DNA from: Psammoneis japonica
Taxonomy: Eukaryota
Length of the DNA stretch: 64,000 bases
Reading direction: 5' to 3'
Assembly: GCA_008632985.1 (NCBI GenBank)
Contig: QPGO01000110.1
Span: forward strand, 124,001-188,000
The translations under genes were made by a program, and so were the position numbers. Below are positions 29,405 through 64,000 of this stretch, piece by piece. The notes beneath the pieces are model-generated. The model searched no databases and had not been told where the DNA came from. It saw nothing but the letters and a program-made list of their open reading frames with translations. Each line of letters begins with the position of its first letter. Position 1 is the stretch's first letter.

Positions 29405-29669
29405 TTTCTAGCAGGATTAAAAACTATAGTGCGGCTTGTTTAAAGTGAATGTCATTGTTATACTCCCGGCGGCGATGATTCTCAACGCATCTATCGTTCG
29501 CCGGATAGAAAAATGTGAGCGCGGGGATGTGGGGGTGCGGTGTGCGTGGGTGATGTGTGATGACATCATCACATGCGTTGAGTCGGATATATTCATATCC
29601 TTGCGAATATGTATTTGTCGTTAAGTAAAAACTCCCATCCCATAGCATATGTACAGTAAACCTACATAA

Positions 29670-31030
29670 GGAACCGAACAGCTTGCTGTACGACACTTTT
29701 TCGGCCATTTCAACACCACGAAAAAAGCACGCGTCAACTCGACTCGACCATGATGATGTCTCGCGATTCTTCCCCAACGCCTTCGCAGGACACCGTTCCT
29801 GCCGACACTGTCACAAATGACACTGGCACAACAGGTGACGTTGTTGCTTCTGTTCTGAATGGCCTGACACATGCAAAACGAGATGCCACCAACTCACACT
29901 GTCATTTCGCACAACCGCCTCCCACAGATGGATGTCATCACGAATGCCAACGCCATCCCTGCATTTCTTTCAACTGCCAGCATCATGCCCAATGCTGTTG
30001 CTCACACCCTCAGTGCAACAGGTGCTGTTGATGCTGTTGTTGACTTGTGCCAATGACACCTGCAATTAAATGGCACCAACTCACACTTTTTTGTCCACAA
30101 TCCACTGCCCCTCCAACAGATGCTGTCAGGAATGCAAACGTCGTGCCTCCATTTCATTCAACTGGCATGCCCACCAGTGTTGCTCCCACCCTTGCTGCAA
30201 CAGGTCTTGTTGTTGTTGCTGTTGTTGTCTTGTCACAAAATGCCCATTGACACAATGGCGCCAACTCACACGTTTTTCTCATGCTCCAGTGCCCCACACA
30301 GGCAAAACCACTCGGTCCACCATGCCGACATCTCCCCCATCATCTCCACCCCCTCCCAATGCTGCTGCACCCCATGCAGATGGCAACCCTCTCACTCCAG
30401 CAGTTGGCACCCAAACTCAGCTGGTGTGTGATCCAGAAGACAACCCCGTTGTTTCTCATCATGGAATGGTGGCGGACCACTGGAAGGTCAAGGATTGGAG
30501 GCACTCGAGAACAGCAACAACAAGGCCTGTTGCAGCAAGGGCAGGAGCAACACTGGCGGGCATGCCAGTCAAATGGAAATGGAGGCACAACATTTGCATT
30601 CCTGACAGCACCTGTTGGAGGCAGTGGAACGCACCATTTAATTGCAGATGTCATTGGCACAAGTCAACAACAGTGTCAACAGCACCTGTTGTGCTAAGGC
30701 CATGAGCAACAGCATCGGCCATCCCAGCCAAAAGAAATGCAGGGATGGCGTTGATGTTTGTGACAGCATCTGTGGGAGGTGGTGGAGCGTGCAAACAACA
30801 GCGTCAGTTTGCAGTGTCTCATTTTGCATGTGCCAGACCATTTGGAACAGAAGCAATGATGTCACATGTTGTGTCAGTGTCATTTGTGACAGTGCCGGTG
30901 GGAACGGTGTTCTGGCAAGGCATTGGGGAAGAATCGTGAGGCATCACCATGGTTGATCCGATGTGACGCATGTGCTTTTTTCATGGTTGTGAGAAAGGTC
31001 AAAAGTGTCTTCAGCTGTGCAGTCGGTTCA
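29670..31030. repeat. Long imperfect inverted repeat (foldback): arms about 29670-30225 and 30510-31030
   Basis: For example GATTCTTCCCCAACGCC at about 29765 vs GGCATTGGGGAAGAATC at about 30919; colinear inverted match over about 550 bp. Confidence 0.9.
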
Positions 31031-32649
31031 AGGCAACTTGAGATTTGGGGGAGAACATGGTTCAGGATTTTTCCTGTTGCTGTTGGCATTTGTGCACAAA
31101 AATGCAAAATTGAGTGACATGACAGCATGCAAAAAATTCATGACGTGAACAACGCATCACCATGACATCAAAACCACAATCTCCACTTGCGCAAAGGGGT
31201 GATCCCAATGATCGCAGATTGTCAATGAAATGGTGTCATAAAAAATGCATGCAATCGCACAGTTTGGTTGGTCTGTCCATCAAATGATTTTCAATTTTGC
31301 AGGCTTGCGTGGTCAAAACTTGCACAGATGCCCTGTAGAAATGTGCACGAAAACACACCAAAATCAAATTTTCAAAATCGCGAGGTGAAGTGAAGCTGCT
31401 CTTTCTTCCCTGCACCATCTCGGTGTGACTCCAGTGGACTGCAACAACAACAATGACAATTGAAAATGTTGCTTGCATGTGTTGAATGCACTGAGGAGCA
31501 AGAGGAGAAGTGCATCGTCACTCTGACTCCTTGTGGCTGCAAAGTTTGTCTTCACCGCATGGTTTGGTTGATGGTGGAAAAGACATCCCAGAGCTTGTTG
31601 CACTGTGATCAGCGATCAATGTGCTGCCAGCCACAAGACAGTTCATGCCATCCAAAAGAGAAATTGCAAATCAAAAAAAAGTGAAGTTGACTGTGAATGC
31701 CCAGCTCCTGTCAAGAAAAAGAAAAAGAGGAACCCCGCCAAGTCTCATGACTGTTGGAACACCTCCAAGAGAAACAAAACGATGGTGTGGTGTCAAGTGC
31801 AATTGGAGTGGATGACCCACTGCTCACAGTGCAAACAACGGTTGAAACAGACAAGGATGGCAACATCCTGCACACTCCAGTTGGATTTGCAGCAGTTGAC
31901 AGAAAAGGAGACATGGCTGCCAATGAATGACAGTCAAAAACTGAACTTGCCATCAAGAACATCTTCAAAAACATGTCATGCATGCTCTCTCACCTGCAGC
32001 TGCAACAGGAAATGGCACAGAGCAGATGCGCCAAAAAAAAAAGCATTCAATCACCTCATGTCAAAAAAAAAAAGAGCAGCCATGCTTCTGTCCATTTTTG
32101 CTTTTGCTGCCAATGGCACTGACACGGGTGCTTTTGTGGAGAAGACAAAGAAGCACGGGAGACAAGGCAACTCACATCGGTGTTGGCTGTGGGAGTGACA
32201 ATGGATTTGGTTGTAAGAGTCTCAAGTCAAAATGAGGTGGGGCCCACCATCAAATGTGTGTCCAATGTTTTTCACAACTCAAGAGATTCTGTCATTGGAG
32301 AGATGCTCTTGCCAATTTCAAAGTGACAACATCTGCATTGGCAGCTGGCATTGCAAAGGCTTCTGAAGAGTGCGTTGCACAGCCTGCCTTGAACCCAAGG
32401 TAAAATTGGCACCTGAGGATGGGGTGATGTTGACAGCCAACAATGCAGAATTGAAAATGACACATGCCAAAGACACACGGGGCTTTGATGGAATTCAAGG
32501 AAGGTGCTGCATTGAATGCTCTGGGGGGGGAGACCTCAGTTGAGAAGCACTCAGCTGAGCTGGATTGGTCATTCCATTTGACTGAAGTCAATGATGTTCC
32601 ACTCACTGGTTGTGAAAAAGAAGTGCAACAGCCACATGCCATGAAATCA

Positions 32650-34165
32650 GCTCACATCTCAAATTTTGTCACTGACAACACTGTCGCTGCAACATTCATG
32701 GCAACAAATGCACACATTGCTGCTGAAGCTGCATCTCTCATCTTCTTTGGGACAATTGCTGTTGCTGCAACATTCATGACAGCAGGCACAAACATTGCTG
32801 CTGCACTCCTCCTCCTCATCCAGGGGGCAATCACTGTTGCTGCAACACTTGTGGAGGCAGGCACAAAAATTGTTGTTTGAGCACATCTCAACATTGGAAC
32901 AGTCAGAACTGCTGCAGCACTCATGGCGACAGGCACAAGCATTGCTTGAGCAAATCTCATTGCTTCCACAATCCCCATTGCTGCAGCACTAAAAGGTGCA
33001 AACACACCCACCAGGGTCTTGACATTTGTGGTCTGGAGGGCAAAAACATTGCTCGTCACACAGACTGGAGTGCATTTGCAGTCAACACAAACATTGCTTC
33101 TGGAGCAACCATCATTGCCGTTGGGGCACTCACAATCTGCCAAACACTCATTGCTGTCTGAGCAAAACCCATTGCTTCCACAGTCACTGTCGCCACAGCA
33201 TTCATGGCAATGGACACAGCTGTTCACTGCACACATCTTGTTGTCACCACAGTCACTGTCAATGCAGCATTCGCGGGGGCAGTCCACAGTTTCCTTGACT
33301 TCTTCCTTGCCAAAGACCACAAAACTGTGGCATGCTTTGCCCCCCAAAGTCACCAGATCTGTCAACAAGCAGTTTTTTTTATCATCCATCATGTCCGGAC
33401 TGTCACAGATTTTGCACCAGCCATTGACAACTCCACTCTCCCCAGTGTCAAAGATTCTGAAGTTGCAGTCAGCTCCTCAAACTGCATCAACTTTTGCTGT
33501 GACCCAGCTGTGGGCTTTCCCAGTGTGCACTCCAGGAGGAAAGTCAAACACTGCCTTGCTGGTCTCCAACTCCCACCCGGTTTCTTCCAGTTGGTCATCC
33601 AGTTGAGCAACAACTGTCGTCGTTGTCAATGATGATTCGGTTGGCTTGCTGCTCCTCATTGTCAACAGCACAGCCACAACAGCAGCTGCTGCTGCCAGAA
33701 CAAGGACCAACAAGACTGCAACCATCTTCTTCCCAAATCACGTTGGCGTCCCTGCTGAGTTGCTGCTTGGATGACACAACATGGCATTTTTGATTGTCTG
33801 CTCCAGTGTTTTGGCAGCAGCCACAGCAGCAACCTGTTCTGCCGGGACAGCAGAATCAGCCAAGATGCGACAAATGCATTCACTCACATCAATGTCTTGA
33901 TGACCTTCAGCCAACTCTGCCACAATGGGGGGAAAAGGCATTGCTTTTGAGTGCACTTGGGGGGCACAGTCATGGCAATGGTTGCTGCAATGGCCCCTGC
34001 ATCCTCCTGGTGATCCTGGGTGCTGCTCTCTTCTTGCTCAGCAAAGGCACCGGGGTGTGTCGTGCCCTGAGCTGCCCCTGACTCTGTGTCATTGTTTGCC
34101 CTTGACAATGCTTCTCTTGTCTTCTCTGGCTCATCACAAATGTCCAAGTGCTTTTCCATTGTTGA
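32650..34165 (-). pseudogene. Decayed single-pass membrane protein gene with Cys-rich extracellular repeats
   Basis: N-terminal PGAFA motif, TM-like VAVLLVLVLAAAAAVVAVLL, repeats CHECCxxSDC. Broken over several frames and TpA-depleted. Confidence 0.55.
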
Positions 34166-35127
34166 CCCCTGTGTGTCCTTTGTGCTTTGTGGCAACAGGG
34201 TCACATTGATGTTGATTGAGAACCATCCTCAATTCTGCAACTGATTTGTCCTCACAAAGAGTTCCAAGAGCTGCAAAAGTTCATGGCTCATCTTTGAGGA
34301 CACAGCGAAGGAAGTTCAAACCTCTCACTTGGCTTTGTCTTTGATGGTCTTGCTTGCAGCTGCCTTTTTGATGAGCAACTTGTCATGACTCATCTTCAAC
34401 AATGCAGAAGAAAAACTTTCTGCATTTTGAATGGCTTTGTCTTTGTGGCATTCACTTGCAGCTGCCTTTTCCAGTTCTCTTGTTTGCGCTCTTCCTTGCA
34501 GCCAAATGGTTGGGCAAGAGTGGAGCAGAAGTGACCACATTTTTTGTTTCTTCCCAAGTTTGTCCTTGATGGAGGTGTGACATGCTCGTCTGCTTCCCTG
34601 CAAAGAACACATTGCAATTGAATGATGAGTGCTGCAACAACCGTTTGATTTTTTTAGAAAACAAGGAGAGAGGAAACGACAAAACAACTCACTCTTTGTC
34701 TGAGATGGCACACGCTGATGAGACTGCAGCTCTCTTGTGATGCAACTTGCAACAGCGACAATTGCCAAAAGCAACAGGCGTTGTTTTGCTCTGCAGTGTT
34801 TTTGTGTCAACAAACAAGAATCCCCCATCAATTTTCACAAGCCGTGTTCGCATTTTTGCTTGCATGTGCGTCTGGTTGTCAGAAATGCCAAACAACACAT
34901 TTTGCAGTGCTGGTGCTTGCAGCTTCTTCTTTCAGCCAGAATCAGCCCTGCTTGGCAAATGGGCCAATGCAGCCCGCCTCCTGCATCAACGGCTTCAGGA
35001 AAACTCCGCAATCGCACTGTCCAATCAATTCTTTGTGAGCAGCATTGGTTGAAATGAAAATGTCTGCTTGTTTCTCATTGCCAACTCTGCTGATGTCATT
35101 GCCAATTGGCCAATGTCATTGCCAGTT

Positions 35128-35588
35128 GTGCTCAAAAGTGCTCAAATGTGCTCAAATGCTGCTCATTTGCTCAAATGTGCTCAAATGCCGCTCATGTGCT
35201 CAAATGCTGCTCATTTCCTCACTGTCAAACACGAGATGCCGAACAAAGAAGAAGAGCAGAGATGGGAGCACAGCAAGGCCAAGCACATCTTAAGAGAGGG
35301 CATGCTCAATGGCACAGTGTCGCCCACTTCAGGGCCATGGCAAGTCCCTGCCAAATGCACCCCAGCCAAATTCCAGAAATGGGATGGGCGGCGGGATGGA
35401 GCACACGAAATTTTGAAGCAACCACAAGTGTGTGCTGTGCAATCATTCTACCAGCAACAGCAGGACATGGCACGTTTGGTTGATCACTTTTTCGATCATG
35501 AGCTAAAACACACTTGCTCAAATGCATGTGCTCAAATTGCTCAAAAGTGCTCAAATGTGCTCAAAAGTGTGCCAAATGTGCTCAAATG
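35128..35588 (+). repeat. Two clusters of about 10-bp TGCTCAAATG minisatellite (35128-35217 and 35514-35588) flanking a short ORF relic
   Basis: Read directly: gtgctcaaaagtgctcaaatgtgctcaaatg... Confidence 0.85.
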
Positions 35589-37364
35589 ATGCCCACTTCA
35601 ATCACCACTTGCTGTGTTGGTGATTGAAATGAGCAGGGTTGGTGATTGAAATGAGCTCTGTTGGCAAATCATTTTGACACACACATTTGTGCACAACGTG
35701 AACATGTCGTTGACAAGTGCATTTAACACACGATCAAATGTGGCCAACTGCAACGTCTGTCCTGGCTTGTTTCACATGCAATCACGGCATCTTCCCATGG
35801 CGGTTTCAATGGACCATGTGCACACCCAGCAGCATCTTTTCCACACCTGTGGATGTTTTGCATGGTGTGACATCTGAAGGACAAATTGTGCAATCTGAAG
35901 TTGGCAGTGATCTCACTCCACCAAAAAATTCAGCATGCAAAAGGATGAAGCGCACAAAACAAAAAATGCTGACAACCATGATGAGCACCATCAGACAAAA
36001 TGCAATCCCAGAGAACCAGCCAATGATCTCCAGTTGCCCCTTTCAAGGAGATGACTCAAGATGTGCCAAAGCATCAGTGGTTGAAAAGGGGCAAGTGGAG
36101 ATCAAAGATTCAAAAGCACAAAACACGGGATTGCACAACGTGAGATTTTTGCTGGACCCTGCAAACTGTCCAAGATTCTCCTTGGAAGCAAAACAACATG
36201 GCTTGTGGCCACATGGATTGAACCAATCAAAGTCACCACACTGATTCTCTGACTCAAAACCACTGTGTTCAATGGCAGGCAAGTGGACCTTCAAGGAGAC
36301 CATGCTCTCGTTGCGATGCTGACAAACAATGCAACGACACCCTGCATTGATGTTTTTTGTAAGTTGGGCAGCTGCGATTTTGCTTCTTTTCATTTCACTT
36401 GTCTTTGTTCTCATCGCTTGACCCGGTTCTTTTCAAAACAGAGACAAAAGAGGCAGCAGAGCTTGCAGCATCAAGGGAGCAAGCACAAAGATGTGAGACC
36501 CCTGCTCTCATTGAAGGACTGCAAGCCGAAATGATGAAGAACATCTTTACATTCTGCCTTTCTTCCTTTTGTTTTGATTTTACAATTGACAATGGTGCCG
36601 CGATGATTGCAGCACGAATGAAGTGCATTGGGCAGTGACTGAAAAAGCCGCGCCATTGGGTTGTTGGTCATTTGTGAGACGTCATCACTGTGTGGAAATG
36701 CACAGAGAGATTTGGTGCAAATCAGATCAGTGCCATGCCCTGCCCACAGGGTCCCCATGTGCGCGCCATGCAGTCTCGGTCAGTCATTTGGTTTGGTGCT
36801 GCTGCACTGCAATCCTGTGGAAGCGAACGTGAAAACAGTCACAATCATCATCTCAGCATGTTTGTTCCACCGGCGGGCAGGAATCACGACTCGGAAATCA
36901 CGATCCAGCACCAGGTCTCTCTCCAGCTAGAGAGAACCACGAAAAAACCGCGGAATCAAACAGCAACTGTGCAGTCATTGGTTTTGCATGTGCAGGAAGA
37001 ATCACAAGAACAGGCTCAGCGTTTACGATGTTAGGAATCTGTGCTTGTTCAGATTCTCAACCGACAGCACAGCCAGCCAACAGTGCCGGTGCAGTGGAAA
37101 GGAGTTGCAGCTTGGTGACAATCCGCCAACCATCAGTCGAGAAGAGCAACAGGACATTACCGTGAAAATGATTTGTCGGGTTCTAAGTGATGTTGTTACA
37201 GCAAGCCAGGACGAATGAGTCACTGATGAACATCTGCAATGGCAAGATGCGAGGAACTCTTGAAAAAAGTCGCACCACCAGCCAGATGCAACCATGGGGA
37301 AGTCTGCTTTCACTTAACTTTGAGACCTAGAGAAACTGAGATGTGTGCAACTGTCACTGTCGCT

Positions 37365-40300
37365 TCAGGTCTCTGCAATGATTGGGTTTCTTCCCATCGT
37401 CACCGAACTCGACAGGCTTCCCCCAGTGGCTAAAGAAGAAGACCGTGAAGAAACGTTTAAGACGCTGCTTCTGTGGCAACTGCTGTCGAGACTTGCAGTG
37501 CTTGACCGGAACGAGTCTACCATGGCATCAAAATGCGCTCTACCTCTAAGGTTGGTGCCTCGTTTTTCTGCCAAAGCAGAAGTCGATGACTCAAGAAAGG
37601 GGTGCTGCTTGACCATGAGCTCTACCTTGACGTGTGCATTGCATTCATCCCAATTTGTGATTGACCTGACCAGGTAATTCTCTGCTTCAGCAGTTCTGAG
37701 CTTGTCAAGCGTGCACTTCCCAGCAAGCTCATTCGCGACAGCACTGGATGGAATGAAAAAACGCACAATGTGTGTGTGAGCCATTTCAAGAACTGATGTC
37801 ATCGGAGCTTCGGTTTCAAGAGAAAATCCGAGACTCACCTGAAGTGGTTTAGTCCACTGCGCGAAAATTGAGCGATTGCTTCATCACAGGCCTTCCTGGC
37901 TTCTGCCGCCGAGGTCGACTTTTTCCCACCCTTTGCTTCCGCTTGCAGCAATTTCAGCAGAGAGATGCTGTTGACTGGTCGCGTCTTGGAGACATTTGCC
38001 AATTCTGTGATTGCAGCCTTGGCAACCCTTGGACCTGTTCTGCTCCTGGGCTTCACCTTGGCAAGCCACAGACCAACAAGTCCGTCCACAAATGGAAGGA
38101 AGTAATTCATCATGTGTGTTCCGCTGAAACGACGGGCTACTTTCTTCAGAGACATTATCCGTTTCAAAGTTCTGTCTGCCAATGTGACATGTTCCAATGT
38201 GCAAGCATTGTAGAGCTGCAGATGCCACAAGCAGAGGACGTCAGCTGGAACGATGCGAGTGGACTCGTCGCAAAGTAACAAATTGTCCGAGAAAAGAGCG
38301 TGAGTGCAATCGTCTCTCGAGACAGATCCAATGGATTCTTGCTGACTCCCATCAAATTCAAAGCCAGTTGATGGGTTGGCAGTGTAAAAGCAAGAGGGAC
38401 ATCTTGACGACAAATCTGGAGCTGGGAGCCGAAATTCCGCATGTCGTCACTAAAGGGCCCAAGCGGCAGCCCACAGTTAAGGTGAATGAGGCAACAGCAG
38501 CTAATGCAGATAGATCCAAAGAACAGGTCCCCCGTTTCCAAGCCGATGCGGTGGCCAGCAATAAACGGCTCCAAAGAAGCACTGAGCGGAAGCTGAAGGT
38601 GATTCAAGTTGGCATGTGTCAAGGGACAGGCAGAAGCAAATGTTTCTTTGCGGCGCCCGGTCTTCAAGGCGAGCTGACCAAATCGAAAACCTTCATTGTA
38701 GTCGCCAAAGCTAGCGCACATAAAACCATGTGCGGAGCACATGCAAGGTGTTGCCTCAGACGAGCCTTCTCTAACCGTAATTCGAATGGCTCGAAGGAAA
38801 GCCAGGCCTGCGAAATTCACGTCTCCGTTCCACCCGCAGACGGAACCAACCTGCAGGATCTTAAGAATCGTTTTGATTTGTGTCGACTTTGTGGTCGGCA
38901 ATTCCGTAAAGAATTCGTCGAGTTTATTCTTGCAAGCTTTTCGGGCTTTGACGTGCTCCATTGCCACATGGTGGATGCCAACCTTCTTTGGCATGGGTTC
39001 CCCAAGCAACTTTAACACGCGACAACCCTGTGCAATAGCTTCCTTCCATTGACATTGTAAACCACACATCTGGAATTCCACAACCAAAGCGCGGACTGCG
39101 TCAGTTTCGCGCACAGCATTCTTCAAAATGATTTCGATGGTTCTTTTTACTTGGTCGAGCATTCCCAGGGAATGTTCCACTTCCGCACACGAATTGTGGA
39201 CTTCGAGGACGAGATCATAGTGACATAGCCAAAACGAGGGTTGGACGAGCTCGACTGCTTTTTGGAGAAAGTTAGAAACTGCCTCTATCCCTGCATTTTG
39301 CTTTGCAACCTTGGAAGCCTCGTGGTTCAACCTGACAAGGGAAAGCAGTGCTTTGTCGCCATCAATCACACTGGAGCCACGATTGAGTTGGTCAACTGCG
39401 ACAAAGAGGAAGCGAACGGACTCGTCCGGTTGGGCACTGTCTTCCTTGCATTGCCAAAGGTGCTTGCCAATCATGCAGTGTAACAGATCTCGAGCATGAC
39501 CGGTCTCGATGTGGTCGTAAACGCACTGCTGGATTCGATCGTGACTGAACTTCACAACATCTCCGGTTCGTTCCACAAAACCTTCATCTTCGGCGCGTTT
39601 TAAGGCTGCCTCAAACATTTTTTCCTCAAACTTTTCTCTCGTTACCCCGTCGGATAAATCCACGCATGGCGGTTTTTCCCGTCTTGGGATTTCTGCTGAA
39701 TTCTCGCATGCGGTCTGGTGATCTGGCACGAGATCACCCAGTGCGAGGGATCTGTCGCTCCCAACGTGATCATTTACAAAGGAACCGTTGCTCCCAACGA
39801 GATCATTTACGAAGGAACCGTTGCTCCCAACGAGATCATTTACGAAGGAACCGTTGCTCCCAACGAGATTATTTGCGAAGGAATCGTTGCTCCCAACGAG
39901 ATCAGCTACGAGGGAGCCGTTGCTCCCGAAGAGATCACCCAATGAGAGGGAACTGTCCCTCCGGCGCTGGAGATCCTTTACGAGGGAACTGTCGCTCCCA
40001 AGGGCCTTTACGAGGGATTTGTCGCTCCCTGCAGGAAGGATGTTGAGCCGTCCAACATTCATGTCGACACGCTTCAATAGTCCAACATCAACAGAGTGCC
40101 CCAGGCACGCTGCCAACTTGAGGATCCGTTGCACTCGGAGGGGTTCTCCCAGGAGACGTCGAGTCACCACATCGACAACATTTTCCGAAACGTTTGTGCC
40201 CGCAATAGCGCCATCTACATCCCACTCCCATTAAGTTTCGCAAAATTGTACCTTAGAAAGTTTTGGGTGTGAAATTGCTCCAGCATCTGAGTGACAAAGT

Positions 40301-51911: not shown

Positions 51912-51916
51912 GGTGA

Positions 51917-52736: not shown

Positions 52737-54068
52737 GATGACACCTGCACCAGTGGATGAGCAACATTGCATGAGAAAGAACATGTCACAAGTTGACATC
52801 CTCACATCATCATGCTCATGACAACAACACACAAAAGAAGCCATTTGAAGCACAAAGACTGGCCATGTCTCTCCATTGCTTGTGCATGCACTGATGCCAG
52901 GTGATGACAAACACTGCACACCCTTTGGTTGGCCCACACTCATCATCACAATCATGTCACAAAATGATGTGACCACATCAACAAATCATTGTTCATCATG
53001 TTTTGGTGCACTGAACTGAAGTTCTTGCATCAGAGTGCACGACATCGTAATGTCTGCATGCATGACAAAATTGTGTTGCCATGTCATAAAATTTGCTCAT
53101 CTGCACACAACGGTTTTTGTCATTTGGTTGGTTGTCAATCTCCTGCTGTTCTTCATGTTTGAACACAGGTGCTTTTTAATTTTTGTGCTCTGCCTTTTTC
53201 ACAACAACTGACGATCTTTAACGACAAGCCAAACATTGCAATCACATGCAACAAAATTTTCATCATGCAAAGTGTGCGCTGATTGTTCAATCAACAACTG
53301 TGCTCCAACCAGCCCATTCGTCCGCATCATCCTCTTCATTCCATGTGTCTTGTGCGCTCTCTTGCAAGAATTTCAAATGTGCCGCTGCCGTGTTGGATGT
53401 TTCCTCATCGCCGTTCCAAAAAAGCCACACTGCATTTCTTGCATTTGGGTGAACATCATCAAGAGGAAGAGGTCCCTCGAAATGCAGAATCGCACCACTG
53501 CTCCCCTCTTGACATCATGTCATCTGCTTCTTTTTCTCTTTCTTCATTTTGCCCGTCCCATTTTTCTCTCCCTTCTTCCTCTTGGCGCCACCTGTTTTCA
53601 CCGTCTCTGGCATCTTTCCATCCATGTCCTTCTTTTTCATCGATCCCGTCACCGTTGCCTTCATCGTGTGTCACTTTGTTTTGGATCCATGTTTCTGACT
53701 TCTCTCTGTGCTGTCTCCATTTCCAAATGTTTCTGTGTGATTGTTTGCATGCGTCACTTGAAGGCACCCACATGTTCTTCACGCACCTTAACGCGCATGT
53801 AGAAATCCATGTTGTTTTCCAGTGCACACACCCTTTCTCCTGATGCATGTTTGCACAATGTTTTCTTCCATCAACTCTGCACTCCGCATTGCCCTTTCCC
53901 GGCACAATCTCATGCAGGATTTCCCTGGGAGAAGTTGCGTGCGCGTCTGGTGGGTTTTTGTGTTTAAAACTCCAAATCCCACCAGGCGCGCATGCAACTT
54001 CTCCCACGCACCACTCTGGCACATTTCTGTGGAAACCAGAATTTTGTGACTGACGCACGACCAATCTG

Positions 54069-55088
54069 GTGAATGCAATGGCGGACCCACGACCACAACA
54101 ATCAGAGCATCAGAAGAAAACCATGTCAGATGAACTCCTTCCATCCGCTGATGAGGATTTCCATCGCCATGTGATGGAGACAGTTGATGGTTTTGTTCAC
54201 ACTGATGCTGCTCGTTGTTCGGAGGAACAGATGGCAAAGGATGCAAAGGCTGCTGTGTCAAGATCGGCAGAAGCAATGGCAGAAGCCTGTCGTGCCATTG
54301 TGGCTGCAACGACCGCACTTGAGATTGCTTTGTTAAATCAAGCAACAACCACTCATGAATTTAAGCACATCTGTGTGCAGTGCATTGAGTCATCGATTGA
54401 GACACACTGTTCAGACAACAACTGTGTTGTTGCAGTGGAAAATCACAGCAAAGCGGAAATGAATTTCCAACGCTTTCTTCACGGCAATGCATTTGACGCA
54501 AAAGAACTGGGGCTCCCAATCTCCGTTGCGGGACATCAAAAATCAGAACCAAGGCTGCACATGCTGCACAGCCATGACTCGACGTTGCTTCTGAGAAGCC
54601 TCAGGGCAAATTCTGACACAGCCGCCACAAGAGCAGAGAGGGAGCAATCTGCGATTGACAGCATCAACAAATCCATCCACCGCCGCACCGTGCCACTCCT
54701 TCGAAGGCGACATCTAACACAGCCGCTGCGCGTCCTGAAGGATGCAATCACGTTGCTCCACGAGGCCCTCAACGATTTGAGAAGGAAAGACATTGCCTTG
54801 CAGCGACTGTGGCAAGCTTTGCACGATCTGAGGCCAGGCACAGATCAAATGTGCAGAGGGATGTGGACCGCGATCCGGGCCATGGACGAAGAAGCCATGG
54901 CAAGAGAAAGGGTCCTGCAGTTGGCATTGCAAATCGAGGCACAATTGGTGGCTGTCAACCAGCCTGACCACAGCGCCGACTTTCAGCAGGTGATTGTGGC
55001 TGCCAGGGAACATTTCATGGTGCAGGATGACCAAATGGACCATGCAAGTGGACACTGCATGGAATCTGTGAGGAAGCAATTGCTCTAA
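54069..55088 (+). other. 339-aa Tyr-free ORF, probable transposon accessory gene relic
   Basis: Long helical-looking ORF convergent with the Plavaka-type transposase; no recognised domain. Confidence 0.35.
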
Positions 55089-55131
55089 ATGTGCACACAC
55101 TGTGAGTGAATGACAGATTGATGAGCGTGTC

Positions 55132-58100
55132 CTATTTTAGAAACAAATCTGACCAACACTTCCTTCTGTCCTGTGTGGCCCAAACAAGTGGGGCCTTTTC
55201 TTGCACTTCTGCTGCTCCTGGACATTCTTCACAAACCAAAACATTGTCCCCAATTGCTTTGACAGGGACAACACGCAACTCAGGTGAGTGCTGAGTCTTC
55301 TCAGGCGTTGAAAGCCAGTTGTTTCGTTTGTGATCAAGCTGCCAGCGACCAACCAAGTCTGCATGCTGGTGCCGTTGCCTCACAGTTCTCTGGTCAGCTT
55401 GACAAGCAGTTGGATGGACAACTGCAAAAATCGATCCTGTGTCTTCCTGTTTGAAGAAACATGGCAAACGGGAGGGAAACTGTTGATTGCCCTTTCGTGT
55501 GCCAAAGGTCACACAGGCAAAGTCATGCCATGGTCCTTCGCTTTTTGCAATCGGGGTGCGCACGGCACGCATCCCTCCCGTTTGCATTGTAAAACTCTGT
55601 CTCACAAGTCAGGTGTGTGTTTTCACTGTCTTCACCAACACAATCCTCCCACTTTTCCGACATGAAGTTCAGCAACACAGGATGAACTTGGCAACGAGCA
55701 TGCTCGCTGTTCCACTCAAACGTCACAGCGCTGATCCCTGGTTGCAGGTGAGAGCGAATGCACTTCCTCCCAGCATGTGATTGTCCATCCTGACTCTTGA
55801 TGATTCCTTTTTCCCAGTTGGCAAAATCCAACCATCAGCTGAAATTGCGGCGTTGAGCCTCATTTGGTCCTCCATGCGCGACACGACCTGCTTCAGAAAA
55901 CTGTCGAGGTTGCATTGTTGTGCGGCAGATGATGGCAGCTTGAAAAAGTCTTTCAAGAGACGTTCCCCCAAGCCTGCGTCAAAGTTCATTGCATGTCGGC
56001 AACAACAAAGAAAAACTGGGAGATGGAGTGTTTCATGAAGCTTTTGAAGCTTCCGCCCGCATCCTTCTGTTCGCGGGACGAGTTGCACTGTCCGGTCAAT
56101 GAGGAGACGGATTTTCTTGTTCATTTTCTGAACAGATGAACTGGGAGTTGCGCTTGCGATGGGTGGATCGCCTGGCCTGCACCATGCGTGGAAGACAAGA
56201 AGGTCCTCAAGCAATTGAATGAATTGCCGGACGCTGCAGTTGAGTCTTTTTCCCTTGCATTTTTCTTTTTTTGGTTGTCGTCACCATCCTCAGCCTCACT
56301 CTCCTCTTTCTCATCCTCATTTTCGTCCCAGTCACCCTCTTTGGACTCCTCCGACCTTTCATCGTCAGAGTCCAAGTGCTCACTGGGTTGGCAGCAACTC
56401 TCAAAGTTTGCTTTGGGTGTCTTGCGATTCTCTGGAAGAATGGGTTCATCTGTGTCCTCGTCAAGGAAGCATGACTCACATGCGTTTCGTCCCTCGCTGG
56501 TTGACAGGAGAAGGTAGAAAACAAAAGCCATTCCAGCCCAGTGGTGAGAGTTGAGGAAGGCAAGTGACGTTGCTCCTCCTTTGAAGTTTGTTCGCAAAAA
56601 GGATGCTTTGCAAGTTGACCAGTGATTGCTGAAAATCCTTTCCACTGTGCTGTCCACCTCACTTGCGACCACAGGTGTCATGCTGTCTACAAAAGAATTG
56701 ATTGCCCTTTTCAAGGTTCCGGTTTTCAAAGAGATGCATCATGTCACTTGCTGTCACAAGGGTGACGCCGTGTGGTTGTGCGCCAAAGTCTGCCTCAAAA
56801 AGACAGTTGGCAGGTGCGTTGTGTTGCTTGAGGCAATGCAAGATGCCCAGCCAGTGCTTCCTTTCTTGGTCTGATCTGTTGTCGTCGTTGGCCTTAGTTT
56901 GCACTTGGTGGAGATCCAGTCCTCGGATGAACTTGCATTCAATCCATGGGTCGTCCAGTTTGTTGAAGCCAGTGAGGCAAAAATGACAGCAACGTTGACG
57001 ACAGTTGTGACCTCCGCATCGTCCGACGAGACAGTCACCGCTTTTTGCGTCTCCTATGATCAGAACGATCAGTGGGATTGCGTGGAGGTGTCGTGTCTCA
57101 TCCCCTTGTTGCACGCATGTTTTCATGCCTCCTTTTCTCATGACTTCCAAAAGTGGCTCCAAAATGACACGCAAGCAAGTGTGGTGGTCTCTCAACGAGC
57201 GTCCCTTCTCTGCCTTGCAATTGTTTGAGAGATTCTTTGCCGCAGATGACGACATCTTTTTCAAATCCGGGAGACAACCAATTGGTTTCCAGACACTCTT
57301 GTCCGACCATTTGTTGAAGGCAACATGCGCAGAGGTCATGATCACTGGTTCCATGCAATGTGATCCCATCCCTTGTGTCCTGCCAGTCTTGTCGAGGTAA
57401 ATGACATTGCACTCAAGAAATTGTTTCTCCGGGTCAGTTGTCCATTCTTCGCAACTGCGCCTGTGCCACTCACCCGCCAAAAGGCACTTGTCATCTGCTC
57501 CCTTTGCTTTGTGCTTCCCAAAAGGATTGTCTGGATTGGCCACATTCTCTCTGCTGCACCACAGGTGAGGATCGAGCAAAAACTTTTCCCAAACCTTTGT
57601 GAAATCCCACTTTGGCACTGACACTCGTTTTGGCAAACCAGTTTTGAAATTTTTGGTTTCTAGAGTGACAGGAATGGACTCACTGGGTGGAAGAGGGAAA
57701 TGCTTGGTTGAGGTGCTCATCAACTCTTTTCTCCTTGGCAGAACTGTGCCAAGCTCAATGTTGCTGTTGCCAGTGTGCCTCTCAATGAAATCAACAATGC
57801 AATCGCACAATTCCAGGGGAGCACCATGTGTGTCCATGAGCTTCTTGCACAACTCTGCGCAAGCTCCGTCAAGATTTGTCAAAGAGGGAGCAGAAGCCAA
57901 GGCCTCTTCTGCAGGAGTGTGACACCTGATCCCCAAACGTTGATCCTCATCGTAAACGTCCTCTTCCTCCTCCATTGTCACGTCCAACACTGCAGCAAAG
58001 GATTGACCACCGCCAACATCCAAATCGTTCATTGCCAAAAGTTCAACTCCTTGCATGCTGTGGTTTGATGAAACAGAGGACATGTCGCCCATTCCGTGCG

Positions 58101-58404
58101 GTGCATCATCCGGGGAGGGGAACAAGGGGCTGCTGCTTGGATCACTCGTTGAAGATCTTGGGAATCTGCTGCGAGTTGATCGCCTCGGATGGGATTCGTC
58201 ATCATCAGAGGATGAAGAGGAAGAACTGCCGATTTCTTTGGGCGGCCCCTCTGTTGTGGCAGGAATGTCACTTTGATCTGGGATTGGATCTTGGGCCTGC
58301 AACTCTTGGGCAACTGAGTGACACGTCGGCGAGCATCTCCAATGGCAGGCCACTCGCAAAAAACTTTGGCCACAACCGGGACAGAGAAGAGGGTTTCCGT
58401 CCAT
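55132..58404 (-). mobile_element. Degenerate Plavaka-type (CMC/EnSpm-related) transposase
   Basis: VIYLDKTG, WKPIGCLPDL, DHHTCLRVILEPL, IIGDAKSGD...CHFC, SDMMHLFE, KLQKLHETLH...NFDAGLGERLLK. Several frameshifts; termini not found. Confidence 0.72.
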
Positions 58405-58899
58405 TGTAAATCAGACAATGTTGACAGGGCCTTCATCAAGACTCATGCTCGTCGTCCTTGTCTTGTGGATGAGAAGGGAAAAAAATGACAACACGCAAAA
58501 AATGGCGGGAAATTGGCAAACATTGCATTGTCTTCCAGATTGGGATGATTCTTGCAGGCATGACACACCTGCATTTTGATTTTTTATCTGGCATCCAAAA
58601 TGAACATTGTGCTTTTTATTCACTGTCAAAATGCAGGACATCATCTCCGTTGAAACGCGATGACAGCCATGTCAAAAAGCAAGTTGGGCCATTCGTTGTC
58701 ATGTGCAAATGTGTTTTCAAATTTCAATGTTGCTGACAACAATCTGTGCAATGTTGGAGAGAAAAACAGAGTGCCTGGCTGTCTCAACACGACCCAAACA
58801 ATGGTTGCACTGTCAAACAGTGCCACTCCTCTCATTGTTGCCGCGAAAAGATCAAGATGTCGTCTCCAGCACAACCGGCAAAGAAGAGAAAGAAAAATG

Positions 58900-59930
58900 A
58901 GACTGTCAAGCCAATGAGCCCGAGACTTCAGGCAGTGTTGAAGAGAACAGGTGCGCAGGCAGCGCATGGTGCATTGAAATCAGAAGTGGAGAAGGTGGCT
59001 GGAAATGATCTCTTTCCACAGGTGAAGTTTCTCAGTCCATCAGAATTGGCAAGCAATGGGAGCATCTCGATGTTTGTCAAGAAACAGATTGCCAGTGGCA
59101 ACATGGACACTTCAAATTGGTCAGGAACTTGGGAGGAATGGGCAAAAAAGGCGGTAAAAAGGCAAATTGACAATCGCAGAAACACGGGTGTTTGGCCATT
59201 GGGGCGGAGGCAATGGCCCGCAAGTTGAGTGACCAATGTGTGTGACTCGAGAGTTGCGCGCATCTCACAAGAAGATGACGGCAATGCTTTGTCCACACAG
59301 GCGTTGTCACTGAGGAAGAGGGAAAGGAAAAAGAAAAGAAACTCAAGGCGGCAGACAGGAGGAAAAAGAGGAAAAAGTCAAGCCATGACAAGAGTGAAGA
59401 GAATGACATCACGTTTGTGCCGACATGGGATCCGTTTGGCCTGGACACTGTCGCCTGCAGCAAACGAAGAAACAAGCAGGCACGCAAGTGGCTCTGTGAT
59501 CACATCCTGCCTCAAACCAAGCAAAAGCAGGCATGGAGCAGCATCGTCAAAACTGGGAACGCACAGGTCTCACAGTTGTTTACGGTGGTGACGAAGCTTT
59601 GGCGCCATCAGCCATGGAGAATTGTTGGCAGGTGTGGGCATGCAGGAACAAGGAGGAGGCGGTGGAAGAATTGGGTGAGGAAATGGAGCCTGAAGAAACA
59701 AGGCCTGCCCCTCGGTGCACGAAGCCAAAGAAACAACGAGTGTCTTGGGGAGATGACGGAATCAATCGGTTCAACGATTTGTGCAAAGAGGTGACGAAAG
59801 ACAGAGACTCCAAGGAGGGCAAGGAGTTTGAAAAGTGGCATGCGGAGATCAAGAAAAGTGAGCTGAGAAGTCCGGAGAAGCAAAAAAGAAGAAAAAGAAA
59901 GCACCGGCTGGTGATGCAGATGAGGTGAAG
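58900..59930 (+). mobile_element. Probable accessory ORF relic of the same DNA transposon, divergent from the transposase
   Basis: LFPQVKFL..., DEALA...ENCWQVW, SWGDDGINRFNDLCKEVTKDR, resembling ORFs commonly found beside diatom DNA transposases. Frameshifted. Confidence 0.5.
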
Positions 59931-59999
59931 GCAATGAACAGCCTGATGGTGGAGAGCAGCAGGGACAACAACAGTGACGACGATGAGCAGGAGGAAGGC

Positions 60000-62900
60000 G
60001 CAAAAGGCAAAACGGATGACGGAGGAGATGAGTCCGATGGAGATGAGTCCAATGATGATCGTTGGCTTGGTTTGAGAGAGTTGCAGCAAGAAAATGTGTG
60101 CACAGTTGACACAGCACTCAGTCATTGCACTGCAGATGCAACAAGGGATTGACTTGGCCAATGAAATGCTTTTCTCATTTAAAACAATGTTTGCAAAAAT
60201 TGACAAACCAAGGATTGTGTGGAAATGCAATTGCACATTGGCACATGGCAACAAGGTGGAGGCAGATGTGGCAATGTGGACACAGTGAAAAACAGCATGC
60301 ACAATTCTCAACAAGTTGTTGCAATGTTGGTGTGGCAAACTTGCAACCAGAGGTTGGCCTTTCATTGTGTGACAATGATGTTTTGCAACATTTTGACAAA
60401 TTGTCATCATGCAAATCTACACATTTTTAACATTTCGTGCACTCTGATGTGCTCAGCTCTGACAAAGCAAGTGAGTCTGGCCACTGGACAACAAGGCTCA
60501 GCCACTCACAGTCTTGGCAGGACAGCAACACAAAACAATCAACAAGATGCTTCCAGAGGCCTGTTGCAACTGAAAGAGCAACGAGTGGCCTTTTTTGGGT
60601 CATCTCCATTGTTGTCCAGGCAGTGCTTGACCCATCGGTCAAGATTTTCCTCAAATGTCAGTCTCTTTCTTGTGCTGAAAACAAATCCAATGTCAGTCAG
60701 CTTGTTCACATCAAGTTTTGATGGTTTGCCACATTGCAACCTGGTGCACTCCTTGGGTTGCATCTCAACCCAAGAGCACAAAGGGTGCTTGTCAGGTGCC
60801 TTGGTGTGATTGTTCTCTTCCTTGTGCTTTTAATTTCTTGAAAATGCTTGTCCCGCCTTGCATCAGCATTCTTTTTCTTGGCCCAAATCCATTCCTCAGT
60901 GTCATTGCAAACTGCAGCATTGGACTTTCATTTTCTCCCCCACTTGGGTGCCAACTCCAGTCCCAGATCAGCAAGCCGCTGCATGAGTTCTTGTGACATT
61001 GTCAGGTTGGGCATGTTGTGGTGGCTTTTTGAGCCATGGAGCATGGTTTGCCAACCCAAGCACCCAAACCCTTGAGCTCTTCCTCTTCCTTGAGGTTCTT
61101 GTGAATGTCGTCAAAGCAATTTGAAGTTTCTTCCCATTTGAGTTCTTTCTTTGTCAACTGAACCTCAAACACAAAGCTTGTTTCTCTTGGCAACTTCATC
61201 TTGTCTTCATTCATTGTGCTCTCACGCCCCTGCAGGCACTTGAGAATGTCAATGAGTCTTGTGTGCTCCACATGCTGCTGTTCCACCCAATTGCAAAAAA
61301 CATCAAGTGAGTGGGTGTGTTGAAATGGTCATTGACTTGCTTCAACTTGGCAAGCTCAAAGCACTTCTTCTTCCAGTCTTGCTCAATCATTCAAGAAATC
61401 ATCTGCAGTTCTGCCTTTGTGGTGGAAACATGCTCTTCTTGGCAGCAGCTTCCATTCCAGTTTTTGCTTCCTCCTTTGTCTTTGCTGCTGCTTCAGCAAC
61501 AACATGGGCCATGACAGCTTCCATGGCAATTGTGTTGGGTGTCTTTTCAGTTGACACTGCTGCAGCCATTGATGCACATGCCGGTTCAGCAGTGAGATTC
61601 GATGTTGCAGCTGTTGCTGCTGCTGTCATTTCAACTTCTTCTTCTTCTTCTTCTGTTCCAGCAGCAGAGCTGCTGGGCACAGACGTCATTGATGACATGA
61701 CCACTGAAGGGCAGGAGAGCTGGCCCTGCAGCAGTGGCAAGAGATGGTTTCAGCAAGATTGCAGGCAGAGCATCATTTTCCATTTTGTGTTGGTGCTGGT
61801 GCGTGTTGCGTTGGGTTCGTGAAAAGCATGCGGAAGTGCATGGCCAAACACGCAGTGCAAAAATGTTTGAGATGAGCCTCAGGTGTGAAGAACCAGTGTG
61901 TGAAATCTTTTGTTCTGTCATTGGATGGCATGAGTCTGAGCTTGCCAGACCAAACAAAACAAGACAATTGGAAAGGCACAAAATGAGACTCCTGATCTTT
62001 CTGCTGCCTTCCGCTCTTTGGCACTTTGAAGCAATTTCTGGTTCTTCCACTCAGCAGCACTTTTATCCTCCAGAGCATCTGGCAAATCAGCTTCTGTGTA
62101 AAATGCCTGGCGGTGTTGAGCAACCTTCAAACATTTTGGTTTGACTGGGCTTGGCAGCAGCGCATTGTCACAGACTGGCTGTTCAAGGTCTTCTCCCCCA
62201 AATGACTCCCTTTCTTCTTCATGCCCACTCACATTGATGGCTGTTGCAACAAAAAGAAGAGCTTCAACGCCAAGGATGGGCAGGGAAAGCTTCAGCATGA
62301 GGCAGGAGCAGCAGTCAACAATGCCATGGAGCATTTCTCTAAAACTGATTTGTTGGTGCAATTTCAGCATGCACTGTGCAGACGTGTGCGCAGATGCTGC
62401 CACTGCATGGGAATGAAAAGCATCAGAGCTGAAATCAAAAATTGTTTGATGGACAGACCAACAAAACTGCATGATCGTGTGCATTCATGGCACCAAAAAG
62501 CCATGTGTTAAAACTGCTCAGTTCTGGACAAACACATGCAATGCCATTGTGCCAACTTTCGTCTCCTCACTGATTCTTGCACGGTGAGAACCTTGGGCAT
62601 TTTCAACATGCTGTGCAACCTCTCAACTCCAAAGCGAGGAATGTGCAAACAGGCCCACAACAAATTGTCAGCTTTTTTGCATGTCAGAAGCTGTGGGCTC
62701 TGTGGGTGCAACTCTGCCTTTCTTGGAGGTTTGGGCTCTTTTGCAGGGTCCAGTCTGCACCTGCCTCTCCTCAACACCCTGACTTTGAAGCTGTTTGATT
62801 TGTCTTTTGAGGAAAAAAGAAACCCAAGGCTGCGCCTTTTACAGAGCCGGCGTGCTCATTGACTGTGTTTCTTTCCTTGAGTTTTGTTGTTTTCATGTGA

Positions 62901-64000
62901 TGAACACATGCTCTCTCATCTGTTGTTCCAGGCATCTGACATTTGTCAATTGGTCACCAGTGGTTTTGCACTTTCTCCCATGAACCATTGTGGCTGTGAA
63001 GAGCAGAATCTGCTCCGACTGGATGATGCTCTGTTTGGCCTTTTTGGAGGCACATGTTTGCATCAGCCTTGAGTGATGCAACAACAACATGGCCACTTTT
63101 TTCTCCATGAAATCTGGCAATGTTGGAGCATCCCCAGAAGCTGAAATCAGCCCAGTTTCCTCTTCTTTGTTTTGGTGCAATGCCTGCACTCACTCCTCAC
63201 AATCTTCTGAAAGCACACATTTCCAAGTGAGTGCACATCAATCTTCTGGTCAATCACACTGATGTTTTGGAATGTTTCTTGTTCCCAGTCATTGTTGGTG
63301 ACAGCTGTGCTTCTATCTCATCATGTGCCCAACGTGAAAGCCAGCACTTGGCTGGAGCTGGCCTTGCAATCTCACACACTGGTGCTTGGCAGTGTCAGAG
63401 TGGACAAACACTGAGCACTTGGCTCTGCCAAGACTCTGTGAATGCCTGAAAAAACTCTCTGCTCATTTGCACTTTGGCACAAAGCTGTTTGCTTCACAAC
63501 TCACAACACAGCCTTTTGCACAATTGCAGAGACTTCCATGGGTGGCAAACTCACACAAGGAAGCAGCTCTGCACACGCCACATGTGTCTGTTTGCATCCT
63601 TGACTTGGCTTTGAAAGTGGCAGCTGTTGAGCTTCCCCCATTTGTGTCAAAGAGTTTTCAACACCCACACTGTGTTGTCCCAACAAGCTTCAAAGCCCCT
63701 GACATCCTGCGCCACACTCGAGCCAACCAACCATGCACTGCTGCCTTGCTGCAGTTTGAGCCCATTGTCTTGTGAATGCTGTCACACATTGCATGGAACA
63801 AACTTTGCCAGCTGGACATTTGTGCACATTCTTGGTCAACCACGAGTGCTGCCTTGGGCCCACTTTTTTGATGCTGCCTTTGGGGCAGAGCATCAATGCC
63901 AAGGGTTTTGTCTTGCCCCATCATGTGGTGGTCATCCCAGTTGTTGCAAGGTTGTGATGTCTTGCCCCCCATTGCTGCCAGCAGCATTTTTGGATGATTG
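60000..64000. repeat. TpA/CpG-depleted degenerate repeat domain including a homolog of 31240-31330
   Basis: 62430-62490 matches the reverse complement of 31240-31300 (LMDRPTKL). Confidence 0.6.

Follow-up and report, generated by a model that had tools for sequence, protein, structure and literature searches.

Near-saturated loss of TpA by TA to TG or CA transitions in transposon-derived and unannotatable DNA of a diatom contig

Hypermutation confined to TpA dinucleotides of integrated DNA has been described in the chlorarachniophyte Bigelowiella natans. In the available text of the preprint on its mutation-accumulation lines (Mettrop et al., 10.64898/2026.01.13.699255), 231 of 302 nuclear mutations lie in two integrated viral regions, and 230 of these 231 are A to G or T to C changes, all 230 at TpA, with a rate of ~6e-7 per site per generation. 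Coding sequences and clusters that are TpA-poor and CpA/TpG-rich are enriched in reverse transcriptase (RT) and DDE domains in the same genome, and the authors propose an ADAT2-like adenine deaminase. Here, we analyse a 64,000-nucleotide window of the diatom Psammoneis japonica (assembly GCA_008632985.1, contig QPGO01000110.1, positions 124,001–188,000; all coordinates below are those of the window). Transposon-derived and unannotatable DNA in the window, including a complete Ty1/copia long terminal repeat (LTR) retrotransposon, has lost ~88–97% of its TpA by TA to TG or TA to CA transitions. The probable cause is a locally targeted, TpA-specific A:T to G:C DNA mutator of the B. natans kind.

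The window shows a long-term, near-saturated footprint, probably of a process of the B. natans type, with transposons in place of viral inserts. As far as the available preprint text describes it (10.64898/2026.01.13.699255), the B. natans process also produces A to G or T to C changes at TpA, with TpG or CpA as the product depending on the strand, in integrated foreign or mobile DNA with a normal surrounding genome. Both cases show lasting TpA depletion with CpA/TpG gain, targets with RT or DDE domains that are mostly unannotatable, and activity that appears intermittent. In the window, the changes are almost exclusively transitions, they are restricted to TpA with both TpG and CpA as products, and the host neighbours are normal. 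The words diatom, stramenopile, flanking and trinucleotide are absent from the preprint text (10.64898/2026.01.13.699255). The two cases differ in host, B. natans being a rhizarian and the window coming from a diatom, a second lineage of the stramenopile–alveolate–rhizarian (SAR) group. They also differ in targets, which are giant-virus and virophage inserts still at 3.3% and 9.2% TpA in B. natans (10.64898/2026.01.13.699255, available text) and LTR and DNA transposons, a STAND-type NTPase gene and anonymous DNA near saturation (0.30–0.36% TpA) in the window. Moreover, CpG decay is superimposed in the window, which sets it apart from B. natans, and the rate is known there but only estimated indirectly from LTRs here.

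Fungal repeat-induced point mutation (RIP) consists of C to T changes, mostly at CpA, that make TpA and stop codons. The window resembles RIP in outcome, as coding capacity is abolished by dense dinucleotide-specific transitions in mobile or duplicated DNA, but the direction is opposite: TpA is destroyed, TpG/CpA is made and TAA and TAG are lost. The TpA excess and CpA/TpG deficit of the RIP signature are not found in the depleted DNA, where the pooled observed/expected ratio (o/e) is 0.05 for TpA and 1.75 for TpG/CpA. RIP is linked to DNMT4/RID-type enzymes in the accessible part of PMC9998398. Deamination of 5-methylcytosine (5mC) is present in the window as a second, slower layer, and it cannot change TpA. 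Deaminase-type hypermutation directed against mobile or viral nucleic acid would be shared with APOBEC3 (C to U in cDNA) and ADAR (A to I in double-stranded RNA), and ADAR shares the 5' U preference. The targets of these enzymes are limited to retroelements and are edited no later than reverse transcription, whereas the changes in the window post-date integration and also occur in a DNA transposon and in non-mobile DNA. Finally, dinoflagellate 5-hydroxymethyluracil (5hmU) is a TA-preferring DNA modification on repeats in a SAR lineage and a possible route to T to C changes, but it is an epigenetic mark that also prefers TC, which is undepleted here, and no footprint of mutation is described for it (PMC11572971, as far as accessible).

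Full-text literature searches found no description of TpA hypermutation in diatoms. A term search of the accessible text of Maumus et al. 2009 (PMC2806351), Hoguin et al. 2023 (PMC9998398) and Veluchamy et al. 2015 (PMC4504042) found no mention of TpA loss. The original prediction, which was made from the letters of the window, knew of no description in diatoms; this still holds for diatoms within the literature searched, but the kind of process was reported from B. natans in 2026. Its idea of a directed A:T to G:C mutator has gained from the same report, in which, according to the available preprint text, direct measurements in another alga show a TpA-only mutator acting on foreign DNA after its integration.

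TpA depletion in the window

TpA o/e was calculated from base composition and tabulated per kilobase, and the window was cut by TA positions. Per-kilobase values are 0.00–0.14 in 1–1000, 5001–7000, 30001–37000 and 41001–64000, with the exception of 0.37 in 42001–43000, and 0.33–0.89 in genic 8001–30000. The pooled depleted blocks (34.0 kb) contain 122 TA where 2116 are expected, compared with 1031 where 1747 are expected in 25.5 kb of genic DNA. The near-absence of TpA, the abundance of TG/CA and the normal TpA of adjoining genes that were originally noticed by eye are thereby borne out, and an earlier count of 3 TA in 4861–5400 is exact (4967, 5177 and 5246). TA-free gaps of at least 150 bp number 88 in the window, and the longest spans 1275 bp (33381–34654).

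Six strongly depleted blocks have TpA o/e values of 0.028–0.078. TG and CA o/e are 1.6–2.1 in these blocks, and CpG o/e is low too (0.17–0.47, versus 0.87 in the copia element), a loss that the original prediction had not stressed. Block A (1–1430; 5 TA versus 90 expected, 0.056; CpG 0.22; TG 1.74, CA 1.78) extends past the window start. Block B (4834–7554; 9 TA versus 176 expected, 0.051; CpG 0.17) lies between normal genes, and neither terminal repeats nor a target duplication were found for it. Block C (29690–36927) has 17 TA versus 491 expected (0.035) and a CpG o/e of 0.33, and the summed depth of read contigs matching it ranges from about single-copy (79–127) up to 1003. Blocks D (40867–42573; 3 TA versus 107 expected, 0.028) and E (43059–44846; 9 TA versus 116 expected, 0.078; CpG 0.19) are shorter, and block F (51912–64000; 38 TA versus 813 expected, 0.047; CpG 0.42) extends past the window end. 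The genic flank (7555–29689), which contains host open reading frames (ORFs) with Pfam domains, serves as an internal control with 884 TA versus 1503 expected (0.59) and a CpG o/e of 1.02. The predicted depletion over most of 29700–64000 stands, but 36928–40866 is only partly depleted (0.28), the copia element is at 0.12, and a miniature inverted-repeat transposable element (MITE) at 42669–43058 is undepleted (0.95).

The change from normal to depleted DNA follows feature boundaries at several places. At the left border of block C, TA occurs every 2–36 bp in 29588–29689, and the 949 bp that follow contain a single TA; one arm of an inverted repeat starts at 29692, 3 bp past the last normally spaced TA (29689). 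The border at 7554/7555 is also sharp, with normal TA spacing from 7555, and the undepleted island matches the terminal repeats of the MITE. The inverted repeat pair of block C (29692–31009; arms 29692–30218 and 30512–31009) shows 78% identity over 534 bp. Its arms differ by 15 TG/CA swaps, 14 CG versus TG/CA differences, 1 TA versus CA difference, 18 other transitions and 20 transversions.

Pfam scans covered 136 ORFs of at least 120 aa, plus 99 ORFs of 70–119 aa in the depleted blocks. The copia RT, a KDZ transposase and an AAA_16 domain are the only families recognised in depleted DNA, most of which fits no family. The scans gave no match in blocks A and B, and in block C they gave only a sub-threshold zf-C2H2_2 match (36046–36432, minus strand; E = 1.6e-4, 22.3 bits versus a cutoff of 26.9).

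Direction, timing and specificity of the base changes

The complete Ty1/copia retrotransposon spans 44847–51911 on the minus strand. It has the features of this group: LTRs that begin with TG and end with CA, a 5-bp target duplication (GGTGA on both flanks), an RVT_2 domain and an integrase-like segment upstream of the RT. In element orientation, the 3' LTR is at 44847–45109 (263 bp) and the 5' LTR at 51635–51911 (277 bp), and the pair is 89% identical. The element contains 41 TA versus 330 expected (0.12) and has a GC content of 0.57. Its frame (45671–49906, minus strand) comprises 1412 codons, of which residues ~600–1300 correspond to integrase and RT (RVT_2, E = 6.2e-21). In the translation, the RT follows an integrase-like segment (DTVCADT...WQSEP); no integrase Pfam domain was detected in this frame. 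The first ~600 codons are out-of-frame read-through, open only for the loss of TAA and TAG.

The direction of change is read from this frame, which has 1447 homologues (43–69% identity among the 120 matches listed). In an alignment with 40 intact relatives, 365 columns are conserved at 80% or more, and the copia sequence is unchanged in 314 and substituted in 51 of them. The commonest substitutions are Tyr to Cys (9) and Tyr to His (4). The 19 conserved Tyr columns read Cys in 9 cases, His in 4, Tyr in 3, and Phe, Ser and Leu in one each, and every Cys or His codon at a former Tyr site is a single-step TGY or CAY. The change from TA to TG/CA, as originally proposed, is confirmed by these 13 of 19 positions. 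The motifs RCKCGCEVPRNC, GNACLEA, KALHGL, AIHAREN and DTVCADT, on which the proposal was based, are all present in the translation. At the motif positions concerned, Tyr is the consensus residue among intact relatives. The Tyr fraction of the copia sequence is 0.004, and none of the homologues is Tyr-poor, the lowest value being 0.030 among the 120 matches listed. The excess of Cys over His (9 versus 4) rests on too few codons to indicate a coding-strand bias. A CpG layer is seen in the 29 conserved Arg columns, 4 of which read Cys, His or Gln. Deamination of 5mC cannot explain the pattern, as the original prediction had argued: the copia element has lost 88% of its TpA while its CpG o/e is 0.87, a loss of ~13%.

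The dinucleotide balance describes the change in the pooled DNA. From genic to depleted DNA, the frequency of TA falls from 0.0404 to 0.0036 and that of CG from 0.0573 to 0.0302, and TG+CA rises from 0.1422 to 0.2095. The TG+CA gain (0.0673) is accounted for by the combined loss of TA and CG (0.0639), and the sum of pyrimidine–purine (YR) dinucleotides is 0.2433 in depleted and 0.2399 in genic DNA; the pattern is thus one of conversion. Other dinucleotides are little moved between depleted and genic DNA (o/e of AA/TT, 1.25 versus 1.17; AG/CT, 1.00 versus 0.95; GG/CC, 0.86 versus 0.89), and AC/GT is essentially unchanged. GpC is raised in the pooled depleted blocks (1.23 versus 1.05).

Error-prone repair of the Pol eta type, recruited to methylated chromatin, had been offered as one source of the changes. 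Pol eta makes A to G errors at WA motifs (WA to WG), and the CpG decay of the affected DNA makes its methylation probable. A WA signature would extend beyond TpA, but AA/TT is undepleted and AG/CT is not enriched while TA is down to 0.05. TpA at 2–5% of expectation and single-step TGY/CAY codons are also unexpected from a polymerase error spectrum. This candidate is therefore disfavoured, and we regard it as very improbable.

The products show no strand preference. TG and CA counts in depleted DNA are near equal (2891 and 2988), and a runs test found no clustering of the two outcomes (z = 0.7), as expected if single sites were hit independently on both strands and not if one strand were edited processively. 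The hits at each site are independent, fall on either strand in roughly equal numbers, are unclustered and stop at element borders. N-TG-C tetranucleotides are gained beyond what unbiased TA and CG conversion would give; the excess may be an outcome bias from TAC to TGC or native element composition. N-TG-N gains, taken as a guide to the strand of the hit base, are confounded by CpG decay and ancestral composition and leave only the unexplained NTGC excess.

The two LTRs of an element are identical at integration, and their differences date the changes relative to insertion. The LTR alignment (263 columns) contains 12 difference events, consisting of 4 TG/CA swaps, 5 CG versus TG/CA differences, 1 TA versus CA difference, 2 other transitions and no transversions. 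When 16 differences are placed at random, at least 4 pairs of neighbouring differences are obtained in only 0.35% of cases. A TG/CA swap is expected where a single palindromic dinucleotide of the ancestor has been hit twice independently. Because 15 CpG but only one TA are intact in both LTRs, the swaps derive from TA. The alignment implies ~10 ancestral TA sites in the LTR, roughly all of which would have been converted after insertion. Crude estimates from these small counts are ~1.9 hits per site per copy for TA, ~0.13 for CpG and ~0.004 for other sites, so that TpA is hit hundreds-fold over background and ~14 times as often as CpG. The LTR divergence is 11%, of which ~0.8% is background and nearly all the remainder comes from hypermutation; such inflation would mislead insertion dating.

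Editing at the RNA level, ahead of reverse transcription, is excluded by these results, which also show that the copia element entered with normal TpA content. ADAR-like A-to-I editing of retrotransposon RNA, fixed by reverse transcription, would be consistent with the passage of retroelements through RNA and with the 5' U favoured by ADARs (10.64898/2026.01.13.699255, available text). For the window it is refuted by the independent TG/CA outcomes in LTRs that were identical at integration. In addition, the changes are just as heavy in the DNA transposase ORF, the STAND gene and unannotatable DNA, they fall equally on both strands, and depletion stops at the insertion borders of whole blocks that hold several element types; editing of RNA is accordingly an extremely improbable source. 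The changes are DNA-level, occur in the chromosome after insertion and are bounded by element ends. The CpG to TpG/CpA decay superimposed in older blocks is slower and separable, and the CG versus TG/CA differences between the LTRs, as well as between the window and a public sequencing run described below, represent this 5mC-type second layer.

The flanking base appears to influence how soon a TpA is lost. In depleted blocks, the TA that survive relative to genic DNA amount to 0.02 for TAT, 0.05 for TAC, 0.075 for TAG and 0.17 for TAA (p = 2e-9). The same order is found in the partly depleted segment, with 0.18, 0.37, 0.47 and 0.77, respectively (p = 0.001). ATAT and ATAC/GTAT are extinct, and TTAA is most persistent. 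Against a baseline of 77 intact relatives, the copia element has kept 1.5% of TAT and 14–19% of the other three contexts (p = 0.003). We tentatively conclude that ATA/TAT is preferred and hit soonest.

Sequencing reads and metagenomic relatives

Public run X1, for which the platform is not on record, contains 0.88 of the sampled words of 26000–35900, and its contigs were compared with the window over 27000–46900 (k = 31). Contigs of X1 with a word depth of 51–75 match TA-free single-copy stretches of 681–2859 bp with 1–7 differences each, and the depth in a neighbouring normal gene is 55–62. One contig of depth 54 covers 43625–44757 in block E with a single difference. The pattern is thus genuine and not produced by assembly, because X1 contigs at single-copy depth reproduce the TA-free sequence.

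Most window-versus-X1 differences are of the same type as the changes described above. Among the 40 listed, 35 are transitions within a YR dinucleotide, and 138 of 158 variant places among family copies across the run are transitions. The four differences that involve TpA all lie in 37–40.5 kb, and in each case TA stands in the window and TG or CA in X1, so the depletion is not overstated by the assembly. Fixed differences at full contig depth occur at 27625 and in 36952–44757 and are nearly all CpG<->TpG/CpA or TpA to TpG/CpA. These differences suggest that the run and the assembly come from slightly different genomes or time points.

An artefact would arise if a modified base at TpA, together with 5mC at CpG, were miscalled while the true DNA keeps TA. 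Strand-dependent miscalls of a symmetric modified site would yield both TG and CA, the depleted blocks are those expected to be heavily modified, and X1 may share its sample with the assembly. However, word depths of 51–75 at k = 31 would need accurate reads, and contigs at this depth show the same TA-free sequence. A G read on both strands would give a 50:50 mixture of TG and CA at each site and no long full-depth contigs. Both the direction of the four TpA differences and the same footprint in three metagenome contigs, which are assigned to other projects from contig naming and ~66% nucleotide identity, also speak against miscalling. The artefact reading is largely refuted by the read contigs, and we consider it highly improbable.

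Among 80 metagenomic loci that encode copia relatives, the median TpA o/e is 0.69. Three loci are outliers (L044, 0.02; L057, 0.06; L038, 0.31), and the next lowest value is 0.46. At Tyr positions of an intact relative, L044 has His in 12, Phe in 10, Cys in 8 and Tyr in 1, L057 has His in 5, Phe in 4, Tyr in 4 and Cys in 2, and L038 has Tyr in 14, Cys in 9 and His in 6. The control loci L001 and L047 retain Tyr at 71 of 71 and 23 of 32 of these positions, respectively. The three outliers show ~66% nucleotide identity to the copia element of the window, so they belong to different families, probably in different genomes. Hypermutation in 3 of the 80 loci might reflect a process that operates in natural populations of several species. 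Phe is unusually frequent at Tyr positions of L044 (2766 bp; 10 of 33) and L057 (4 of 15); Tyr to Phe needs A to T, and a TpA transition process does not explain it.

The metagenomic relatives also bear on the reading that no mutator is involved and that the elements are intrinsically TA-poor or have had TA removed by selection, for example against TA-targeting insertions or nucleases. TpA is indeed mildly low everywhere, with an o/e of 0.59 in host genes. Intact relatives of the copia lineage nevertheless have the median TpA o/e given above, and their residue at the affected positions is Tyr. Conserved residues are destroyed by the changes, the swaps between the LTRs post-date insertion, and the mass balance fits conversion. 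As judged from these alignments, the intrinsic-composition reading is refuted by polarised substitutions, and the chance that no mutator is involved appears negligible.

Targeting, candidate mechanism and consequences

Depleted DNA holds the copia and KDZ elements, and host genes lie outside it. The KDZ/Plavaka-type DNA-transposase ORF (56662–58410, minus strand) is a borderline match to the Plavaka family in Pfam (E = 5.2e-6, 26.4 bits versus a cutoff of 26.3), with 679 homologues at E<=0.001 and 25 at E<=1e-30. It contains 2 Tyr in 583 residues, which corresponds to a Tyr fraction of 0.004 versus 0.034 in 39 aligned homologues, and is enriched in Cys (0.055 versus 0.028) and His (0.049 versus 0.030). 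Three of its four conserved Tyr columns read His.

The partly depleted segment (36928–40866, minus strand; 69 TA versus 249 expected, 0.28; CpG 0.81) contains the C-terminal part of a STAND-type NTPase gene (ORF 38167–40230, minus strand; Tyr fraction 0.006), whose nearest Atlas cluster is mostly Bacillariophyta. The AAA_16 ATPase ORF of this gene (40672–41271, minus strand; E = 3.5e-11) spans the left border of block D at 40867. The gene is apparently decaying. TA in codon positions 1–2 is its most depleted class (1.9/kb versus 9.2/kb in control ORFs). Tyr-codon TA is thus the first class lost, and there is no sign of shielding by selection. The depletion step near 40867 falls inside the gene, with the AAA_16 end mostly at a TA o/e of 0.03 and the C-terminal part at 0.28.

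The MITE-like element (42669–43058, 390 bp) has 25-nt terminal inverted repeats that are 92% complementary and ATCA on both flanks. It is unmutated inside depleted DNA, with 29 TA versus 30 expected and a CpG o/e of 1.55. Its summed contig depth is 46,000–75,000, compared with ~55–60 for single-copy DNA, and that of the copia element is 60,000–150,000 in X1; summed depth is not equal to copy number. The MITE appears to be a young, abundant family inserted in already hypermutated DNA, and the summed read depth suggests a copia family on the order of a thousand copies. Because the MITE is untouched, the process does not act continuously on everything in the domain.

The original prediction had described the mutator as repeat-targeted, which is not supported. 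Depleted stretches at 34263–35145 and 43625–44757 have single-copy contig depth, and the MITE with its very high summed depth is unmutated. On the same observations, which concern present-day depths and not past copy numbers, strict RIP-like induction by duplication is not supported either. Targeting by element or chromatin state, in an episodic or slow manner, would fit better than targeting by copy number.

In the simplest chemistry, the adenine in 5'-TA-3' of silenced or foreign DNA would be deaminated to hypoxanthine and read as G at the next replication. The mutator would be locally recruited and enzyme-driven. Elements would be inactivated by missense saturation, in which every Tyr codon is turned into a Cys or His codon and changes also fall on ATA, TTA, CTA and GTA codons. 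TAA and TAG stops would be removed and not made, unlike in RIP, and dead elements would keep long open frames. Episodic or slow action would leave a recent insertion such as the MITE untouched. A tRNA A34 deaminase always meets U33 on the 5' side of its target, which would explain the strict 5' T of an adenine deaminase route. An adenine deaminase, the other candidate of the original prediction, is a possible enzyme; Pfam scans of the window ORFs found no deaminase domain.

Thymine oxidation is the other chemistry to be weighed. Here, thymine in TpA of silenced repeats would be converted by a TET/JBP-type hydroxylase to 5hmU and further to 5-formyluracil, and occasional pairing with G would yield T to C. 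Oxidised thymine mispairs with G, and the palindromic target makes T to C and A to G indistinguishable in duplex DNA. In dinoflagellates, also of the SAR clade, 5hmU prefers TA and TC, is enriched at repeats and aids silencing (PMC11572971, accessible part). A matching loss of TpC is not observed in the window (GA/TC o/e 1.01 in depleted versus 1.12 in genic DNA; GG/CC unchanged), which weakly favours the adenine route. Abundant 5hmU in diatoms is not reported among the literature matches listed, and the B. natans authors favour an ADAT2-like deaminase (10.64898/2026.01.13.699255, available text). Thymine oxidation is therefore unlikely but carries more weight than the other alternatives.

Several observations weigh against a TpA mutator of the B. 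natans kind or its details. The MITE, for all its summed depth, is untouched inside a depleted block. Because TpA is palindromic, adenine deamination and thymine modification would leave the same footprint. X1 may have been sequenced from the sample used for the assembly, and the excess of window-versus-X1 differences in depleted DNA (14 in 7376 bp versus 1 in 2595 bp) is not significant (Fisher p = 0.14). The flanking-base preference depends on assumed ancestral contexts, and L038, a metagenomic relative that is partly mutated, does not show it (p = 0.76). A B. natans-type mutator nonetheless remains the probable explanation of the window.

A wider proposal is possible but short of probable. 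TpA-specific DNA editing may be a widespread SAR genome defence, perhaps older than the group, in which a deaminase derived from ADAT2/3 would be recruited by silencing marks and act intermittently after integration. In diatoms it would have saturated the transposon compartment, with ATA/TAT preferred and TTAA spared. A targeted A:T to G:C DNA mutator would constitute a fourth nucleic-acid-editing defence beside RIP, APOBEC and ADAR. The diatom and metagenomic footprints argue for generality and add in-situ and context evidence to a preprint on one organism. Some diatom species are genetically manipulable, and the diatom lineage may make the enzyme easier to find. A natural TA-specific adenine editor of double-stranded DNA would also interest the base-editing field.

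The loss of stops affects annotation. TAA and TAG occur at 1.5 and 1.0 per kb in depleted DNA, compared with 8.9 and 9.3, and the result is long overlapping open frames on both strands of TA-free DNA (45000–50600 and other blocks), for example of 1412, 749, 359, 356 and 322 codons. Gene callers would report spurious long ORFs and Tyr-free 'proteins', and domain detection would fail. The process also pushes the transposable element compartment to higher GC.

A few further features were recorded in the window. A sub-threshold Toxin_37 match (16.7 bits versus 25) was taken as chance, and no tRNA genes were found in the window. The DUF1499 gene of the genic flank has diatom homologues in all 10 cases with a named organism among the 120 matches listed, at a best identity of ~57–69%, which supports a diatom host; some of the names are truncated and were read as diatoms on that basis, and the taxonomy confirmed the lineage of two. 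The diatom relatives among these matches include Asterionellopsis, Eucampia, Cylindrotheca, Nitzschia, Seminavis and Craspedostauros. A host ORF of 1040 codons (9965–13084, plus strand) combines RanBP2-type zinc fingers with a proline-rich 49-residue repeat, which is encoded by five tandem copies of a 147-bp unit with 81–89% identity at 10501–11232. Another host ORF (15023–16225, plus strand) encodes a DUF2235/Tle1-like phospholipase domain (E = 8e-55). Its relatives comprise ~14 unnamed sequences at 54–70% identity, and the next named ones (~40%) are bacterial, which hints at an old bacterial origin of this gene family.

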